A stretch of 64,000 nucleotides of DNA, taken from positions 98,394,001 through 98,458,000 of the forward strand of contig OX597824.1 of the NCBI GenBank assembly GCA_951406725.2, read 5' to 3'. The position numbers were made by a program, and so were the translations under genes. Of this stretch, positions 3,175 through 64,000 are shown piece after piece (position 1 is the first letter of the stretch; each line of letters begins with the position of its first letter). The stretch is from Octopus vulgaris. Its lineage: Eukaryota. Under the pieces are notes generated by a model. The model searched no databases. It had not been told where the DNA came from and saw nothing but the letters and a program-made list of their open reading frames with translations.

Positions 3175-3279
3175 ACGTGACAGCGTGTGTATCGTTGGCG
3201 ATTTTTTCATCCGTCTTCCCCTCCTTGGATCTTTCCCTCGCGTTGTGTTTTCTCTTTGTGTTTTAATGTTTGGATTAAC

Positions 3280-3283
<4 letters not shown>
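3175..3283 (+). mobile_element. Family B copy with internal deletion removing the ribozyme
   Basis: ggcgatttttt...ggatctttcc is joined directly to ctcgcgttg...ggattaacttt. Confidence 0.65.
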
Positions 3284-6505: not shown

Positions 6506-6534
<29 letters not shown>

Positions 6535-6536
<2 letters not shown>

Positions 6537-6790
6537 TGCTGTGTCAAGGGAGAGTCATTCTCTTTTAGTGCCTTGTTATTTAACACACTCACAGGTAAAG
6601 TTTCCACTCATTTATTTATTTATTTTTCCTAGGAAAAATAAATAAGGAAATGAGTGGAAATCAAAATAGTGAGTCTGTTAGATTACAAGGCACTAAAAGA
6701 GAATCACCCTCCCCAGAGATAACAATATATGCTTCAACACACGAACTCGCATAAGGAATCTTGCGAGTCAAATGCAAAAACGAAGTATAT
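6535..6790. mobile_element. Fold-back element (family N) with loopless imperfect palindrome 6548-6713
   Basis: Arms pair around CCTAGG (6628-6633); homologous to 63255-63510. Confidence 0.75.
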
Positions 6791-6804
6791 GTGTGTGTAT
6801 GTGT

Positions 6805-6847
<43 letters not shown>

Positions 6848-6852
6848 CGTGT

Positions 6853-6911
<59 letters not shown>

Positions 6912-15920: not shown

Positions 15921-16200
15921 ATAAATCAAAGGTAGAACAGAAAGAAGGCCAGACGCGGGAAAATAGACGATAGCACGATAAACGTCAAACGAGACATAAA
16001 CAAGATACACGGATCATTCGCAGCCGATTTGCTCATCAGTCGCAGTCTGGACTGATGAGGAAAGGACAAGGACGTCCCGGAGTGATGAGCAAATCGGCTG
16101 CGAATGATCCGTGTATCTTGTTTATGTCCTGTCTGCCGTTTATCGTGCTATCGTCTATTTTCCCGCTTGTTGTCTTCTTTCTGTTATACCTTTGATTTAT
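15921..16200. mobile_element. Fold-back element, 118-bp arms and 44-bp loop
   Basis: 15921-16038 pairs with 16083-16200 (imperfect). Confidence 0.85.
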
Positions 16201-16247
16201 TCATGCGGCGCTCCGTGCAGCCTGCTCTTTACTATATATGTATATAT

Positions 16248-20140: not shown

Positions 20141-20975
20141 ATGAGGTGCGACCAAAAAGTATCTGAGTTTATTTTTACTTTCAAAACTAATGTCGTGTGG
20201 TCAAAATCCTTTGGGTGGGAGGTGACGTTTTACTGCGCATGCGTGAAAACTTACGCGTCGGTAGGTCGCTTCAGTTCCCGGCTGATACGACTAGAGTACA
20301 GGCGTTTAGAGCGCGCTCGTCAGATTTTTGGTTTCACGCAACATGACCGAACACATCGAGCCCCAGTCTCATCACCAGTGATGGCGGCCTTCATGAAGCC
20401 TGGGTCGTGGTTTGCACAGTACAGCATGTTCTGAGCGATTTCCATGTGGTATCGTTTCTGCCTCTCCACCAGCACCATGGGGTCGAATTTAGCAGGGAAA
20501 CACACTGCATACACAAATCCTTCGTTAAAATGGAATGAACGAATCCTGTGATTATCATCACTTCGTGAGCAATTTCTTGGATTGTTACACGACGGTCCTC
20601 TATGACTACTCGCAGAACCTTCTGAGGAGGTTCCTCATTTTGACGTGTGCGTGACCAATCGCAGCGTGCCTCTCCACTGTGTTTTTGCCATGGTATCATC
20701 ACCAAAGCCCTGCTGAATCTTTTGGACGGTTTGATCTTGAGTTCCACCAAGCTTTTGGGAAAATTTGATGCAATATCTCTGTTCGATGCGTCCAGTGAAA
20801 ACGAAAATCCGACGAGCGCCCACTACAGGTCTGTACTCTAGGCGTAACATCCGGGATCTAACGCAACCTAACGGTGCGAAAAGCTTAACGCATGCGCAGA
20901 AAGAGTGGATTCATCTCCCACCTAAAGGATTTTCCCCACGCAGCATTAGTTTGGCGGGAAAAAATAAAGCCGTAT
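20141..20975. mobile_element. Mariner-derived element made of two inverted 5' ends
   Basis: Minus strand: IEQRYCIKFSQKLG..EDRRVTIQEIA..AKFDP..FMKAAITGDETG; the left part is a + strand 5' end up to MTEHIE; about 200-bp imperfect inverted ends. Confidence 0.8.
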
Positions 20976-29800: not shown

Positions 29801-30949
29801 CGTCTATTGGCTGTTTGATTCAATTAATCATTAGTTCATCTGATAGAAATAAGTCACCATTCCTATTGAAGAACATTAGAATTATAGGTGGTGATAGTGA
29901 TGATGATGATGATGATGGTGGAGGTGGTGGTGGTGGTGGTGGTGGTGGTGGCGGCGTCGGTGGTAGTGGAATGATAACCGAGATAAGTAAGAGAGGCAAG
30001 ATGGCCACCGTCTTTGCTATAACTACCACGCTAGCCTTGCATGCCCACACACTATATCAAGTAATTTGACATTTAAAAAATAACATAAAAGTCACACATA
30101 ACAGAAAATATTTAAAAGATTTCTAACTTGTTCAACTCCAATGAAGTTATATCTGATAGCTGTGAGTCATGGAAGGAAATCGGATTTCTGGAAGGAAGCC
30201 GTCTTAAATTTCGACTAAATTCAATTCCAAGTTGTTAGTTTAAAGACTTGCTTCGATTCAATTGCTAAGTTATTCTGAAGAACACTCCACTAAAGCGGTA
30301 TATCTACTAGAAACTTTAGCATTGTCACAGTTTGGCACTAAGAGAATTCTAGATGATCTCCTCTGGGGAAACAAGAAGGTTGTTTTTTTTTGAACTGCCT
30401 GCAAGATCTTCTAGTTGTTGTTAGTGATGCTATTGTTGTTGTTTTTGTTGTTGTTGTTTATTTCCAAGCCAACTCTAATCCGGTAGACCAGATGCCGCCA
30501 TGACATTTGTAGATATGTCTCACATCACATTATCTAACGAATCCTTCTATTTTTAAGAGAATAATTTGTGACTGCAGAAAATATCCGCTTCTTGTTCTCG
30601 CAGTTTCAGTGATTACTTTGACTTAAGATCTGACGAGGAAGACTTTTATACAATAATCCCCCACAAAACAACGAATTGGTCACCGATGATCTGCCTTTTT
30701 ATTTCTGGTGCTACATTGCGCCGAAAGCGACAAACATTTCTGAAGTTGTAAGAAAACATGAAGTCAACATGGGAGCCCCTCCACGGGATGTCTCCATCTG
30801 CTAGAAATAACAGCCTTCTATCTATCAAGTTACATTTTTCCATCTTAAAAAAGGAATCTATCTTAAAAAGGAATAACAAATTGGATAATGTAATCCAAGA
30901 CAGACAGTGTCATAAAGACAAACATATCGAGAAGAATAAGGTTGAAATG

Positions 30950-31560
30950 GCTTGAATCATAGATTAAACAGTCAGTGATTGAATGGCGACAGCTGATACA
31001 GCTTTGATCGGACGTACTGGTGGATAAGGGTTAACCTAGGGTTTAACAACAATATACTTAAAGTAGACTGTCAAATACATTCACTGTTTCACGCAAACTG
31101 TAACCCAGGGCACAAATGTTTCGCGGGAGAAATTGGTCTACTCTGATCTAAGGCTGAGGATGAGACTAGCTTTTCTTTTCTTTCTTCCGACTGAATACAT
31201 GAACTCAATAAGCAATGGAAACAGTCGTTAAATATGTAGCGTTCCCTCTGCTTACATAGGTAAGTCGTAAGTACGTCACTGAACGCCTCTGTGAAACTGT
31301 ACTTAACCATGGAACCTACATATTGTGAGTCAGACTGAGGTAATTGAAAGCCATTTCGGCTACAGACCATTGCACGAACTAGAACAGTTGTGGGAATCTT
31401 TTCAGAGTCAGATCTACGGCTAGAAATAGCTCACAAATTCCCCATCAATGAGATAAGGGTTGAATGTTTTAGCAACAATACGACAAGATTTTGTAGGCAG
31501 TTTTTATTAAAAAAATCAGCCTCGTTGTGTCTCCGGAGGAGACTGTCTCGAATCCTCTTA
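30950..31560 (-). mobile_element. Possible very old PLE C-terminal remnant
   Basis: Weak similarity only (SMVKYSFT.. / RP..FV terminus); not secure. Confidence 0.25.
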
Positions 31561-31927
31561 GTGCTAAGTTGTGACAATTTGTCATCTTTTACTTGTTTCA
31601 GTCATTAGACTGCGGCCATGCAGGGGCAATGCTAAAGATTCTAGTAGATACACCGCTGTAGTGGAATGTTCTTCAGAATAACTGTGTAATTGAATAAATC
31701 CAAATCTTTAAACTTTGGAATTAAATTTAGTCGAAATTTAAGTAATATTGATTGGAGCGAATGAGGGAAGTAGTAGGCAGCTGGTGAGATGGGAGGAGCA
31801 GGGAGAGTCGTAGTAGTGGAAGATGAGGTGAGACTGAGAGAGGAAACATGTCTTTCACTGCACAGATTCTAATGAATGACCGTCTTTTGGTCAAGTTTTA
31901 TGATGCTTATATCTTTAACAGCCGCAA

Positions 31928-32990: not shown

Positions 32991-33745
32991 AACTCATCAC
33001 GGCAAATTATTGTTTACTTCATCGAAAAACCCCGTTTTAGTGTCATTTTGGCGCCAATATCGATGAATTAGTTGACAGAATATTATTGAATTTTATTGAA
33101 GCTTGCTTGTCTGCACAGACTTTTTAATTAGTTTAAAAAAAAACAATAACAAAACACATCAGCAATAAAAACAATGATTACAATAATGATAGAAATCCTA
33201 TCAATGATATAAAAGTAAGAAAAATAGGATAATTTCATAAAATAACACCAATAATAACGATGATAACGTTTCTCTGTTGAGCTCAAGGCCCTCCACATGG
33301 ATTACGAACTGTGCTAAACAAATATGGGAGCTGCACATCAAGATAACAAGAGACAAACACTCAATAACATATTATAGTTTAATATTTGGTAGGCATTGCA
33401 AATGGAAATAATTATTTCAGATTTTGGTGAGCAATTTTAGTAGGGAAGGAGTTGTCAATTTCGTTAGGATGCCGGACAAAATCCTTGGCAGTATTTCGTC
33501 CGTCTTTATGTCCTAAGTTCAAATTCCACCGAGGTCAACTTTGACTTTTGTTCTTTCAAGCTCCGATAATCTAAACAGCAGACAAACATTGACACAGGTT
33601 TGAAAGAGTGTAGGGAGTTCACTTGGAAACCACCTGGTTCTGAGTTCGATCCTGTCTCGCACATACTTCAACGACAAGTGCCATTTCCCACAGGCATTGC
33701 ATTGACCACTTCCTTGTGACGGAAATTTGCTCTTATATCTATATA

Positions 33746-33790
33746 CTAGCTGAATAGCCCGTCGTTGCCGGGCAATTTTTACAATAGAGA
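33746..33790 (-). mobile_element. Helitron 3' terminus
   Basis: Minus strand: hairpin GCCCG-gcaacga-CGGGC, then 11 nt ending CTAG|T; near-identical end at 63532. Confidence 0.7.
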
Positions 33791-36295: not shown

Positions 36296-36709
36296 GTCCA
36301 AGGATCGAGGTGTAGGAAGAAAGTTAGCTTCAAACAATCCGTAGTAAGGAGTAAAGATTATTTGCCAACATAACATGCCAGTCCTGGTTTAGGACGAATG
36401 TTGCTGTAATCTAGTCCCAGAAGACATCGTCTCCAGCTGGCGATACGACACGATTTTCGAACAAGGGAAATAATTTTTACTCCAAAGTACTGTTGCTGAA
36501 TATCTCACGTTGTGAGATTTACAAATAGTAATTTTCTAATCCGTAATAAATGTTAAAAAAGAACAACTTTCAGGGACAAAGGTGGTTTATTGAGAAGGAA
36601 GGTTGCGAATTTTTTCGTATCCAAGTACAATAAATTGAAAAAAAAAAGTTCTTTTTATAATTCACGTAGGCAACCAAGGTTGGTAGGTGTGCGAATATGA
36701 ATAAAAGAG

Positions 36710-37029
36710 TTAAGGAATGGCGTTGACAAGATCCGGGCTACGTATGTTTCATAGCGAGCGGAACTACGGAAGCGGTAAATATCCAAGCCAGGTGTGTACC
36801 GAAGGTTACTCTTCAGGTAAAGGATGTCTTGATTAGATTTAAGGTTACATTGTCGCAAGATTCAATCAGAATGTACCTCCTGGCGACAATGTAAACTTTC
36901 ATCTAATCAAGATACCCTTTACCTGAAGAGTAACCTGCGGTACACACCTGGCTTGGATATTTACCAATTCCAAGATTCCGCTCGCTATGAAACATATGTA
37001 GCCCGGATCTTATCTACTCCATTCCTTAA
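36710..37029. mobile_element. Fold-back element (147-bp arms) with a hammerhead-like motif in each arm
   Basis: 36710-36856 pairs with 36883-37029; + arm CUGAAGA (36923-36929)...GAAA CAUAUG UA (site after 37000). Confidence 0.8.
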
Positions 37030-37123
37030 ACCTTGTATGTATATATAAAACCTTGGGCTACAATTGTGCTTCTACAAAATAGTTGTACGAGTTAGAAAAT
37101 ACGAACAGAATCTTCTTCAGCCG

Positions 37124-39565
37124 GAAACAAATAAGAAACAAATAAGAAACAAATAAGAAACAAATAAGAAACAAATAAGAAACAAATAAGAAACAAATAA
37201 GAAACAAATAAGAAACAAATAAGAAACAAATAAGAAACAAATAAGAAACAAATAAGAAAGAAATAAGAAAGAAATAAGAAACAAATAAGAAACAAATAAG
37301 AAACAAATAAGAAACAAATAAGAAACAAATAAGAAACAAATAAGAAACAAATAAGAAAGAAATAAGAAACAAATAAGAAACAAATAAGAAACAAATAAGA
37401 AACAAATAAGAAACAAATAAGAAACAAATAAGAAACAAATAAGAAACAAATAAGAAACAAATAAGAAAGAAATAAGAAACAAATAAGAAACAAATAAGAA
37501 ACAAATAAGAAACAAATAAGAAACAAATAAGAAACAAATAAGAAACAAATAAGAAACAAATAAGAAAGAAATAAGAAACAAATAAGAAAGAAATAAGAAA
37601 CAAATAAGAAACAAATAAGAAACAAATAAGAAAGAAATAAGAAAGAAATAAGAAACAAATAAGAAACAAATAAGAAACAAATAAGAAACAAATAAGAAAC
37701 AAATAAGAAACAAATAAGAAAGAAATAAGAAACAAATAAGAAACAAATAAGAAACAAATAAGAAACAAATAAGAAACAAATAAGAAAGAAATAAGAAACA
37801 AATAAGAAACAAATAAGAAACAAATAAGAAACAAATAAGAAACAAATAAGAAACAAATAAGAAACAAATAAGAAACAAATAAGAAACAAATAAGAAACAA
37901 ATAAGAAAGAAATAAGAAACAAATAAGAAACAAATAAGAAACAAATAAGAAACAAATAAGAAACAAATAAGAAACAAATAAGAAACAAATAAGAAAGAAA
38001 TAAGAAACAAATAAGAAACAAATAAGAAAGAAATAAGAAACAAATAAGAAACAAATAAGAAACAAATAAGAAACAAATAAGAAACAAATAAGAAACAAAT
38101 AAGAAACAAATAAGAAACAAATAAGAAACAAATAAGAAACAAATAAGAAACAAATAAGAAAGAAATAAGAAACAAATAAGAAAGAAATAAGAAACAATTA
38201 AGAAACAAATAAGAAACAAATAAGAAACAAATAAGAAACAAATAAGAAACAAATAAGAAACAAATAAGAAAGAAATAAGAAACAAATAAGAAACAAATAA
38301 GAAACAAATAAGAAACAAATAAGAAACAAATAAGAAACAAATAAGAAACAAATAAGAAAGAAATAAGAAACAAATAAGAAACAAATAAGAAACAAATAAG
38401 AAACAAATAAGAAACAAATAAGAAACAAATAAGAAAGAAATAAGAAAGAAATAAGAAACAAATAAGAAACAAATAAGAAACAAATAAGAAACAAATAAGA
38501 AACAAATAAGAAACAAATAAGAAACAAATAAGAAACAAATAAGAAACAAATAAGAAAGAAATAAGAAACAAATAAGAAACAAATAAGAAACAAATAAGAA
38601 ACAAATAAGAAAGAAATAAGAAACAAATAAGAAACAAATAAGAAACAAATAAGAAACAAATAAGAAACAAATAAGAAACAAATAAGAAACAAATAAGAAA
38701 GAAATAAGAAACAAATAAGAAACAAATAAGAAACAAATAAGAAACAAATAAGAAACAAATAAGAAACAAATAAGAAACAAATAAGAAAGAAATAAGAAAC
38801 AAATAAGAAACAAATAAGAAACAAATAAGAAACAAATAAGAAACAAATAAGAAACAAATAAGAAACAAATAAGAAACAAATAAGAAAGAAATAAGAAACA
38901 AATAAGAAACAAATAAGAAACAAATAAGAAACAAATAAGAAACAAATAAGAAACAAATAAGAAAGAAATAAGAAACAAATAAGAAACAAATAAGAAACAA
39001 ATAAGAAACAAATAAGAAACAAATAAGAAACAAATAAGAAACAAATAAGAAACAAATAAGAAAGAAATAAGAAACAAATAAGAAACAAATAAGAAACAAA
39101 TAAGAAACAAATAAGAAACAAATAAGAAACAAATAAGAAACAAATAAGAAACAAATAAGAAACAAATAAGAAACAAATAAGAAACAAATAAGAAAGAAAT
39201 AAGAAAGAAATAAGAAACAAATAAGAAACAAATAAGAAAGAAATAAGAAAGAAATAAGAAACAAATAAGAAACAAATAAGAAACAAATAAGAAACAAATA
39301 AGAAACAAATAAGAAACAAATAAGAAACAAATAAGAAACAAATAAGAAAGAAATAAGAAACAAATAAGAAAGAAATAAGAAACAAATAAGAAACAAATAA
39401 GAAACAAATAAGAAACAAATAAGAAACAAATAAGAAACAAATAAGAAACAAATAAGAAACAAATAAGAAACAAATAAGAAACAAATAAGAAACAAATAAG
39501 AAACAAATAAGAAACAAATAAGAAACAAATAAGAAACAAATAAGAAACAAATAAGAAACAAATAA
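37124..39565 (+). repeat. 11-bp satellite (GAAACAAATAA)n, about 222 units
   Basis: 2442 bp = 222 x 11; recurrent GAAAGAAATAA variant; one GAAACAATTAA unit near 38191. Confidence 0.97.
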
Positions 39566-39684
39566 GAACATGCTGAAACTCGAGGTGTAAATAATAAAGT
39601 GAAATACCTTGGAACTGAAATCTACCTATCAATCTGTCTGTCTGTGTTTGTCTGCTTGTCTATCAACCCACCTGCTTACGTACG

Positions 39685-47552: not shown

Positions 47553-48500
47553 TTCCACTCGTCTATCCTTCTATTGAAATATAAAAGGCATTGGTAACTT
47601 TCGAATGTTACTACTTCCTCTAGAACTGCTCCAATATTTCCCAGACTATCTCGCCTTGATTTCAAAAATGATAGAAAGTTCGGCGAACTTCTAATAAGAA
47701 GCTCCACAACGCACACCCACCCACCCACCAAAACCTGGCACTTTTAAATGTGCTCACCGGCGATGCAACACCTACCACTGCATCAACAACACCGCAGCCA
47801 TCACTAGGCTTAAGTCACACATTTCTCAGAACTTCTGTTGCACATCATCCAGTCTCATATATTTTATCGTCTGTGAACTTGGTGGTGCTCTTGACATTGG
47901 CGTTGCTGACTGGCTTCGGAAGCGCTTTAAAAAGTATATTACTCCGAATGCCAGGTCAAACTATCACCACTCACTTCAACAGATTGTCCATTCCGTTATT
48001 CAAATATCAGTGAAACAGTGTCTGTGCACACCATGGATCCAAATGCTCAATGAAGCAGAGGGAACAACATGTTATAATCACCGACAGGTTTAAATAAACA
48101 CTTTTCCTTCTCTTCCTAAACCTCCTCCTTTTAGTTCAGCCCTTTTTTAATCCTTCAAATTTCCTCTCTCCTCATCTTTTCCTTTCTCTTCACTCTCACC
48201 TTCACCCACCCCTCTTCTTCATTCCATTCCTCTTCCTTCCATTTTTCTCAGACACACTCTGTCTTCTACAACTTCCTGTAGACGCACGAAACGCTCTTGG
48301 TCTTGCATTCATTATTAATTGCAGCCATTTCTTTAAACTAAGAGATTGTAATACTCTGCCATCTTCCCTTAATTTTAAACCTGTCAAATTTTCCCTGAAT
48401 GAGGAATCTATCCGAAACGTTTGATCCTTTCACTCCCCGCAGCAGGGTCACTGTACTCTTTTAGCCGATTTTACTCTATCTTTGTGTACAAACTATATAA
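47549..48500 (+). mobile_element. Neptune-type Penelope-like element 3' remnant (Cys linker, GIY-YIG, 3' UTR with hammerhead-like motif)
   Basis: IFP..FKNDRKFGELLIRS..KPGTFKCAHRRCNT..QNFCCTSSSLIYFIVC...ALDIG...LRKRF..THFN..PTGLN; CUGAAUGA GGA aucua UCC GAAACGUU at 48395-48421. Confidence 0.8.
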
Positions 48501-51965: not shown

Positions 51966-52281
51966 AAATTTAGATTCAGATGAATATGGTACTTAAGTTG
52001 AGGCACCAGAATTTAGTACGGTATTATCCATACAATTTCAAAATAAGGTGATTAAAATCAAAATAAGCAACAAGGGTATCCAGAGGTAATGCAGTACAAT
52101 CGTTTCAAGCAACTCTATCTAATTGAACAATGCAATCATTACATCAATTTAAATGCAGAGCAATCCTCAGTTGCATGAAGATATAGAATTTAATTAGATT
52201 AAAACAGATGGACACATTAGTATACTAATGTGTCCATTAGTACTACGTTACCTCTGGATATCCTTGTTGCTTATTTTGATT
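51966..52281 (-). mobile_element. PLE-type element with hammerhead (52089-52176), 42-bp inverted arm and 30-bp palindrome
   Basis: AUGCAa CUGAGGA..GCUCU...AGAGU..GAAA CGAUUG UA cUGCAU; 52056-52097 pairs with 52240-52281; perfect palindrome at 52208-52237. Confidence 0.75.
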
Positions 52282-53061
52282 ATATATATATATATATGTG
52301 TGTGTCAGGTCACTTTCGAGTGCTACTGGTAACATGTAACCCAGTACAACCTGTTGCATGGTCGGGTCGTCGGCGGCTAAACCGGCAACGCCACCAAGCT
52401 TGCTTGGTGAGGAGGGTGTTCATTGGACACCCTGCGGGATGAAAAACAAAACCCGTCAAACGGCGGAGGAACTCTTGAGAGTCAACGGCCATCCAATAAA
52501 TGTCTTAAGGCTGTATCAAGCGCGGGGACATAGAAATAATCGGACTGAATACCCGATCGCGCGCTTAAACCATTAGGAGTGAAGGACTCCTAGCCTTTGT
52601 TACAGTAACTCAGGTAACTCAGGTAACTGGGATAACTCCGATATAAAATCTGCAGCTCAGTGGTTACCGATGATGTTGACTTGTTCTTCTTTTCGGATTA
52701 TGGCTGCTGTTGCTTAGTGAGTGGGATTGACTCAGTGCACAGCCTTTCCTCACTTTAAAAAAATCTTCTTGCAAAGGCATTGCACGATAACAACATTGAT
52801 TAAGCTTCGTGCAATGGCCATACACGATAACGAGGGGGCAATCACCATATATATATATATACATACATATAGATTTATATATAATGCATGTATATATATA
52901 TGTATATATGTATGTATTTATGTATTTATGTATGTATGTATGTAAGTATGTATGTATATATGCATATATATAAATGTTTATATAATTTATATATAATGTA
53001 TATATATATATATATATATATACATATATACAGATGCATATATATAATGTGGGTATGTATA

Positions 53062-61793: not shown

Positions 61794-62043
61794 ATATGTA
61801 TATAATTTAGAGAAAAACCTCTATTAAACAATTCAATAAAGAAAGATGCTATTCACACCAAATAGAAAACATATACTATAAAAAAAACTTATTTTAAAAA
61901 TCAGCAAAGTACAATAAATAGTAAATATTACTACTTACTACTATTTACTATTTTTTTTATGGTATATGTTTTCTATATACTGTGAATAATATATTTCTTT
62001 ATTGAATTGTTTAATGGAGGTTTTTCTCTAAATTATATACATA
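61794..62043. repeat. AT-rich fold-back with about 93-bp arms
   Basis: 61794-61887 pairs imperfectly with 61951-62043. Confidence 0.75.
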
Positions 62044-62758: not shown

Positions 62759-63061
62759 TACTGAATGCGTTAAAGGTGCCCTCCGCATGATCCAACGGGA
62801 ACGCTGCTCGAAGGCTGGCTTCAAGGCTAATATGGATATATGACGTGACTGTGTGGCAAGAAATTGGCTTCCTAAGCACACGGTTACGGATTCAGTCACA
62901 CTACGTAGCATCTTCTACTATTGCCTCGAGCCAACCAAAGCCTTGTGAGTGGATTTTGTTGACGGAAACCGAATGAAGCTCGTCGTATATAGGATGTATG
63001 TATGTATATGTATCCATACATACATACATATATATATATATTGCAAACCAAATCCCAAAAC

Positions 63062-63196
<135 letters not shown>

Positions 63197-63254
63197 GATA
63201 GATATATATATACATGTATACATACATACGCACACACACACATATATATATATA

Positions 63255-63510
63255 TTTCGTTTTGGGATTTGGTTTGCAAGATTTTTTATGTGAGTTCGTG
63301 TGTTGAAGCATTTTCTGTTGTGTTTGGGGAGGGTCATTCTCTTTTAGTGTCTTATTATTTAACACACTCACCGGTAACATTTCCACTCATTTATTTATTT
63401 TTTTTCCTAAAATTTTCGTTGCTTCTTGCAACCTTTTCAATAGTTTTATTTTTAAAATAAATAAATAAATGAGTGGAAATTGAAGAGAATGACTCTCCAG
63501 ACACAATGGT
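63255..63510 (-). mobile_element. Family N copy with U3-A8 hammerhead-like motif (63407-63443)
   Basis: CUA UUGAAAA g GUUGC aagaa GCAAC GAAA AU UU UAG; partial fold-back. Confidence 0.7.
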
Positions 63511-63531
63511 ATATATATTCCTATATATATA

Positions 63532-63570
63532 CTAGCTGAATAGCCCGTCGTTGCTGGGTAATTTTTACGT
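63532..63570 (-). mobile_element. Helitron 3' terminus
   Basis: Near-identical to 33746-33790; hairpin plus TATTCAGCTAG|T. Confidence 0.65.
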
Positions 63571-64000
63571 TAGAATGTCTTATATAAATAGGTCTCTTGA
63601 TCGGGACAGATTGGTGCAATTTTTCGCAAAATACTTCGTTGAAGATTATTTCCCTTTTAAAAATATTTACGTCTGTTCGACTCTTTCACGTGACTTTATT
63701 CATTAAAATCTTCAGAAGTTCCCACAACTTTGGTTGTCGTAAATCTTTGGTTTCGTTTGTTTAATAAAAATTCTTCTTCCTAATGATTTTATTTTCATTT
63801 TGTGATAGACAGCTATCATACAGAAAATGCCAGCTTCCAAATCCTGTTCTCTGATTAGGTAAAATTAATTAAACTTCAAACCTCAGTGACATTTTTCAGC
63901 AATTTTTCTGGAACGAATAAATGACAAAATCCAATTTAACGTGGAAAATAATTTCCATATACCAAACTTGACGTAATTTTAAAATTTCACAATGTGACAG

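Follow-up and report, generated by a model that had tools for sequence, protein, structure and literature searches.

A loopless fold-back centred on a predicted hammerhead cut site, with arms very probably copied from two templates, in a likely Penelope-like repeat family of Octopus vulgaris

When a fold-back repeat has no loop, and its centre sits where a ribozyme of the same repeat family is predicted to cut, does the join record cleavage of the family's RNA in the cell, or was the structure put together in some other way? The locus that raises this question lies in a 64,000-nt stretch of Octopus vulgaris DNA (the window), a microsatellite-rich animal sequence in which 15,848 of 64,000 bases were masked. 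A repeat search of the window identified an inverted repeat (copy A) with arms at 6531-6630 and 6631-6730, each 100 nt long and 81% complementary, with a spacer of 0 nt and the fold-back centre between 6630 and 6631. Its zero-spacer ungapped score was 24, whereas 300 dinucleotide shuffles of 6537-6785 reached 9 at most; the loopless fold-back that a first-pass annotation had placed at 6548..6713 is real, and the span given there is the inner part of 6531-6730. The two arms have in common the TA at 6630-6631 (a 2-nt overlap), a perfect palindrome surrounds the centre, and the right arm extends past the end of the left arm by a tail (Table 1). Besides copy A, the family is represented in the 64-kb window by one further copy (copy B) and by small pieces beside it; a 24-nt inverted piece of the copy B tail is located at 63038-63061, about 190 nt off across a TA run.

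Table 1. Coordinates of the features of copies A and B in the window (strand as read for each feature).
Feature	Position	Strand	Remarks
Copy A, left end	6509..6536	.	(AT)14 run, likely insertion target
Copy A, left arm	6537..6631	-	inverted, tail-less, 5′-truncated family piece; mostly majority alleles
Copy A, central palindrome	6616..6645	.	perfect, 30 nt
Copy A, right arm	6630..6724	+	first base is the base past the predicted cut; run of minor family alleles
Copy A, 3′ tail	6725..6785	+	one-sided, 55-61 nt, also in copy B
Copy A, right end	6786..6911	.	TA, TG and GATA microsatellites
Copy B, body and tail	63255..63409	-	body 63409-63316; tail 63315-63255, ending in TA run
Copy B, predicted minimal type I hammerhead	63407..63443	-	features compared with PMC4209133
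Predicted hammerhead, helix I	63443-63441 with 63409-63407	-	3 bp
Predicted hammerhead, core	63440-63434	-	UUGAAAA (U3-A8)
Predicted hammerhead, extra G	63433	-	followed by helix II of 5 bp
Predicted hammerhead, GAAA and AUUU	63417-63414 and 63413-63410	-	predicted cut between 63410 and 63409
Copy B, inverted arm	63454..63509	+	tail-less, 33-nt internal gap

The predicted ribozyme is found in copy B, whose minus strand reads CUA, UUGAAAA, G, a 5-bp helix, GAAA, AUUU and then UAG; the sequence quoted around the cut by the annotation, GAAAAUUU^UAGG, maps to 63417-63406 of this strand. The core is the U3-A8 covariant and not the canonical CUGANGA, with GAAA and NUH (UUU) present; the U3-A8 variant occurs in Penelope-like elements (PLEs) of Schistosoma (Cercyon), according to the part of PMC4209133 used here. 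The same source lists three hallmarks of PLE hammerheads of the minimal kind: a base inserted after position 9, G10.1-C11.1, and palindromic positions 15.2-16.2. In copy B, the extra base between 9 and 10.1 (the G at 63433), G10.1-C11.1 and the 5-bp helix II are all present in the minimum-energy fold; positions 15.2-16.2 read AAUU inside an 8-nt palindrome, through which a dimer is possible (self-duplex -3.6 kcal/mol); and, as in the minimal type I hammerheads of metazoan PLEs, there is no helix III of its own. Copy B is unlike those hammerheads in its helix I of 3 bp, below their usual 4-5 bp, and in its helix II of 5 bp; a helix I of 2 bp is described in D. virilis (PMC4209133). A minimal-hammerhead descriptor matched copy B and nothing else in the window (mean of 0.017 in 60 shuffles), and with one core mismatch allowed it also recovered two other families of this layout, in three copies. 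The Rfam hammerhead models gave no match in copy B, which is uninformative because the window's other minimal hammerheads likewise went unmatched at the gathering score. The ribozyme call of the annotation is plausible, with a matching U3-A8 core and matching published PLE marks, against a helix I of no more than 3 bp; the motif plausibly fits a minimal hammerhead of the Penelope type.

Both arms of copy A align to copy B from 63409, the first base past the predicted cut, and the segment corresponding to 63410-63443 is missing from copy A. The coincidence of fold-back centre and predicted cleavage site that the annotation had claimed is exact, and the ribozyme is indeed absent from this copy. 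Copy B also has an inverted arm, linked to the ribozyme via 10 A/T bases (63444-63453), and in this copy the ribozyme is kept.

According to the account of PMC8557442 that we cite, PLEs as a rule have (TA)n targets, a tail on one side and inverted 5′-truncated copies, and palindromes at inverted PLE junctions were described in PMC3846280, where they were read as products of self-priming. In copies A and B alike, an inverted 5′-truncated copy is adjacent at the 5′ end, the tail is one-sided, and the outer ends, all four of them, adjoin TA runs, i.e., a microsatellite (TA)n target. From these traits of the DNA, the family is likely a Penelope-like element with inverted pLTR-type insertion; copy A is a head-to-head pair of short pieces from one high-copy family, likely a non-autonomous PLE. 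Like the endonuclease-bearing PLEs of these two papers (in the parts cited), copy A combines a head-to-head 5′ join, a junction palindrome, a one-sided tail and a TA-repeat target; unlike them, it has no coding sequence that we found, a tail of 55-61 nt (also the length in copy B) where theirs usually have 30-40, and a junction exactly at the predicted cut. An open frame of 40 codons in the right arm had no relative found and was treated as chance, not as a gene, and no RT or GIY-YIG parent frame was linked to the repeat in the window. Two other assignments were rejected: a MITE or DNA transposon with terminal inverted repeats, for the one-sided tail and the variable inversion points, and a non-LTR retrozyme, for the lack of tandem hammerhead units in either window copy. 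Non-LTR retrozymes (in the part cited of bioRxiv 10.64898/2026.07.22.740005) are, as here, short non-coding hammerhead repeats from pLTRs, but they are built of tandem units, whereas copies A and B are inverted pairs. Four short family motifs were absent from one supplementary file of PMC8557442.

The first-pass annotation explained copy A as a single cDNA that had snapped back, which predicts that the arms are sisters. The arms are diverged, as the annotation had itself cautioned (they differ at 19 of 95 positions), and the left arm matches copy B better (84/95 identical) than it matches its own partner (76/95). At 9 of the 19 differences (counted by eye), both letters are the copy B letter or a listed family allele, which has a binomial P of 5e-5 at the expected rate of 29/282; a conservative count of 6/15, with CpG and two A/T-run sites dropped, gives P 0.003, or P 0.06 at a generous rate of 0.2. 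The right arm has minor alleles (each below 19% in the two tabulated runs) at copy B positions 63315, 63372, 63373, 63374, 63376, 63378, and 63393; the left arm stops short of 63315 and has none of the other six. Single-template snap-back is unlikely in view of this closer match of the left arm to copy B, and because the arms differ at alleles that segregate in the family; to judge by the sequence, the arms of copy A very probably come from two templates. Against two lineages, the family allele table consists of single sites and not haplotypes, the P at the generous rate is 0.06, and a rare letter at 63354 is common to both arms; the difference in rate between the arms (12 vs 5) is not significant (P 0.14). 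Two templates, which the annotation had offered as its own alternative, are a better fit to the allele differences, the one-sided tail and the TA-repeat target, and arms that seem to be of different lineages are not predicted by the self-priming proposal for PLEs. Two-lineage arms are a firmer result than the cleavage footprint, which rests on one copy. A hairpin moving as a unit was also considered and had no support, the shared letter of both inverted arms (63332) being the family majority allele.

The weights that we give to the readings of the origin are a matter of judgement, not of computation. Snap-back could be rescued if a cDNA ran off a cut RNA and primed itself, and one of the arms was subsequently overwritten or decayed more quickly. 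The loopless symmetry around the cut, the perfect 30-nt centre and the rare 63354 allele in both arms would agree with this; self-priming has been proposed for Penelope palindromes (PMC3846280), and cDNA snap-back after full-length synthesis has been seen with R2 proteins (PMC11371274, both in the parts cited). We regard it as very improbable all the same: the arms are not sisters, and a hairpin loop should need a few bases, of which a 2-base self-complementary end offers none. The simple product of single-template snap-back was rejected on the sister-arm comparison. It is harder still to credit that a template switch during replication rewrote the centre of a near-palindrome, or that copy A is an assembly artefact. 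All 19 mismatches lie at least 16 nt from the centre, and there are several other inverted structures in the window, one with 100% identical arms; but assembly fold-backs give identical arms, which those of copy A are not, and the central bases match copy B too, so that their identity needs no rewriting.

There remains the position of the join. Copy B contains 31 self-complementary centres (of at least 2 nt) among 186 positions; the strongest is an 8-nt palindrome, 4 nt upstream of the join, which the predicted cut would split, and the copy A join skips it and uses a 2-nt palindrome directly past the cut. We tentatively favour, with somewhat less than even confidence, an origin in which two family RNAs were cut by the predicted hammerhead, copied to their cut ends and joined in one insertion. 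The templates of this insertion would have been two distinct RNAs of the family, each probably cut beforehand; the element's enzyme would have nicked both target strands and primed one cDNA from each, one beginning at a far start site (with the tail) and the other at a near one (without the tail). Each cDNA would have run off the cut RNA end, so that the 3′ ends finished in TA and could pair together, and repair would have sealed a loopless palindrome, which may owe its persistence to arms that were mismatched at the outset. For most copies, the templates would apparently have been uncut and the ribozyme retained. In this reading the copy A junction may record, in one copy, that the ribozyme cut RNA in the cell. 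Several observations stand against cut-template joining: it is a single copy, most copies keep the ribozyme, and the listed strand-switch joints lie away from the cut (see below); helix I is of 3 bp, and metazoan minimal hammerheads are weak in vitro in the data cited from PMC4209133; and the anole element mainly used uncut RNA, with no RNA reads beginning or ending at the cut in the part of PMC11167929 considered here.

The same geometry would result if two templates had been joined in an insertion from uncut RNAs, and the ribozyme loop was deleted afterwards, a close rival to which we give only slightly less weight, again below even. A B-like hairpin could have lost the spacer between two TA dinucleotides, or a join at the 8-nt palindrome could have lost its central 8 bases; since the 3′ strand of helix I invariably adjoins the cut of a type I hammerhead, the centre left by loop removal coincides with the cut even if no cleavage took place. 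Copy B carries an inverted arm together with the ribozyme, 4 of the 11 listed strand-switch joints give B-like hairpins, the ribozyme is present in most copies, gaps inside copies occur often (33 nt in the inverted arm of copy B; a copy of another family at 3177-3281 without the ribozyme stretch), and palindromes at inverted junctions have been described for PLEs (in the part cited of PMC3846280). Later loss, however, requires a second event, exactly symmetric and of zero depth into both arms; run-off from cut RNAs needs one event, as against an uncut precursor plus this symmetric loss. Palindromes tend toward revision by asymmetric central deletion, which creates a spacer and does not remove one, and this also counts against later loss.

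A chance meeting at TA of two prematurely ended cDNAs, or a stall of the RT at the folded, uncut ribozyme, is in our judgement improbable. Chance has room to act, since 31/186 positions are self-complementary over 2 nt or more and would permit symmetric joining, there are tens of thousands of family copies by a rough depth ratio, and the locus was picked because of the coincidence; but both cDNAs would have to end within the same two bases, the sense-arm ends seen among the listed joints cluster elsewhere, and a 3-bp helix is a weak block.

We surveyed the family in contigs drawn from four of the 24 runs listed, those of organisms A, B, C, and E, aligned to 63248-63453 at 80% likeness; between 6,521 and 13,255 contigs aligned per run. 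The ratio of peak depth to the median depth of long pieces was 34,000-80,000 in the four runs; this ratio is not a copy number, but the family is very abundant, with tens of thousands of copies as a rough figure. The hammerhead motif belongs to the family as such rather than being a decayed version, since only one of the 40 listed variant rows (there are 11 further rows) falls in 63407-63443; and most family copies keep the ribozyme, since its mean depth is 0.86-0.99 of that of the body in the four runs. Among the 15 of 89 joints listed, 11 are strand-switch joints; each of these has one end at the ribozyme's 5′ edge (63437-63448), and none has an end at 63407-63412; in 4 of them, the B-like hairpins mentioned above, the other end is at 63392-63406. 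No stop at 63407-63413 was found in the 15 upstream-continuing pieces (among 32 of 38,686 pieces listed), no loose-end rows were found at the cut among the 24 of 1,063 listed, and the junction of copy A itself was absent among the joint rows listed. In a further joint table, 5 of the 12 listed rows (of 16) have an end at 63407-63413, with no orientation given; two of these five look like tandem go-backs, and one, should it be a strand switch, would put the beginning of an arm at the cut. Arms that start at the cut are under-detected, because they must align through 63388-63406, where copy B differs from the family and the depth is about tenfold lower. The comparison of breakpoints with the predicted site that the annotation had proposed covers these listed rows: the strand-switch joints cluster at 63437-63448 and none is at the cut, which argues that the usual fold-back point of the family is not the cut, while the sample is biased by the under-detection of cut-site joins. 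When checked by eye for microhomology, the coordinates of the listed joints gave no clean fit.

The joints at 63437-63448, seen in the four runs, may show where the family's RNA usually has its 5′ end; detection favours this zone, and the family also runs on upstream in many contigs. A motif of the family's upstream part was absent in the window at up to 3 mismatches, and neither two family patterns in metagenome contigs nor one pattern in viral contigs had a match.

The anole Poseidon element is like our proposal in several respects. In the part of PMC11167929 cited here, its PAc protein, for which a dimer is predicted, cleaves and extends both target strands and initiates at two sites bounding the tail; the hammerhead needs the protein, uncut RNA is the main substrate (no reads ended at the cut), and cleavage is dispensable in vitro. 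Two start sites bounding the tail, the extension of both strands and a hammerhead upstream of the start sites are common ground; head-to-head joining of two cDNAs, as in copy A, is not reported for PAc in that part of the paper. R2 elements share a ribozyme cut that sets the template's 5′ end, and inverted junctions at the cDNA end; they differ from copy A in having an HDV-like ribozyme, a single template and membership of another element class. No literature tying a PLE inversion junction to a hammerhead cut was found in the sources consulted, mostly open-access and without the supplementary figures of PMC11167929 and PMC4209133. Copy A is real and of a generally known kind of structure; for two of its features no precedent was found in the compared literature: arms of different lineages and a join at the predicted cut.

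What the hammerhead does in Penelope elements with an endonuclease is described as unclear in the cited part of PMC8557442. Copy A is a testable lead on this role, resting on a single copy, and the family also bears on how inverted pLTRs form; since the family is of high copy number and has distinguishable alleles, it can be counted whether ends pile up at the cut and whether arms come from different templates. A broader proposal, which we consider rather unlikely, is that PLE hammerheads pair two RNAs through the palindromic helix III and cut both in trans, that both are then copied by a dimeric enzyme starting from the two nicked strands of the target, and that loopless cut-site joins record it. 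If this were true, the ribozyme would be a device that brings two templates together, and inverted pLTRs would be explained without self-priming.

The window also contains other repeats. At 47698-48430, we observed a CxxxxCxxC motif and a weak GIY-YIG match (47698-48090; Pfam E 0.039, below the cut-off), followed near 48397 by a hammerhead-like motif (found by eye); the region looks, from its sequence, like the 3′ end of a Neptune-type PLE of another family than copies A and B. Two more short families, at 809(-), 54294(-), 2417(+), and 59546(+), have minimal hammerhead layouts between TA runs, and the ribozyme is kept in 4/4 of these copies; in a further copy of the 2417/59546 family, at 3177-3281, about 95 nt including the ribozyme are missing, with breakpoints that are not at the predicted cut. 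The fold-back at 15921-16230 (arms 111/121 identical, 38-nt spacer, one-sided tail of about 30 nt) has CTGATGA near its centre, with the centre 5′ of the core, and probably represents a further inverted insertion of PLE type. Inverted pairs with spacers from 20 to 1,302 nt are also present at 36695-37044, 61795-62043, 20168-20968, 30203-31742, and 52053-52284. The inverted arms at 912-1188 and 1465-1741 are identical at 277/277 positions and come with a 61-nt direct repeat (1189-1249 and 1735-1795), i.e., a very recent template switch or an assembly artefact. Adjoining copy B, a repeat ending in GCTAGT (63522-63574, also at 33736-33788) resembles a Helitron 3′ end, and a 2.5-kb array with a 13-nt unit occupies 37092-39621.
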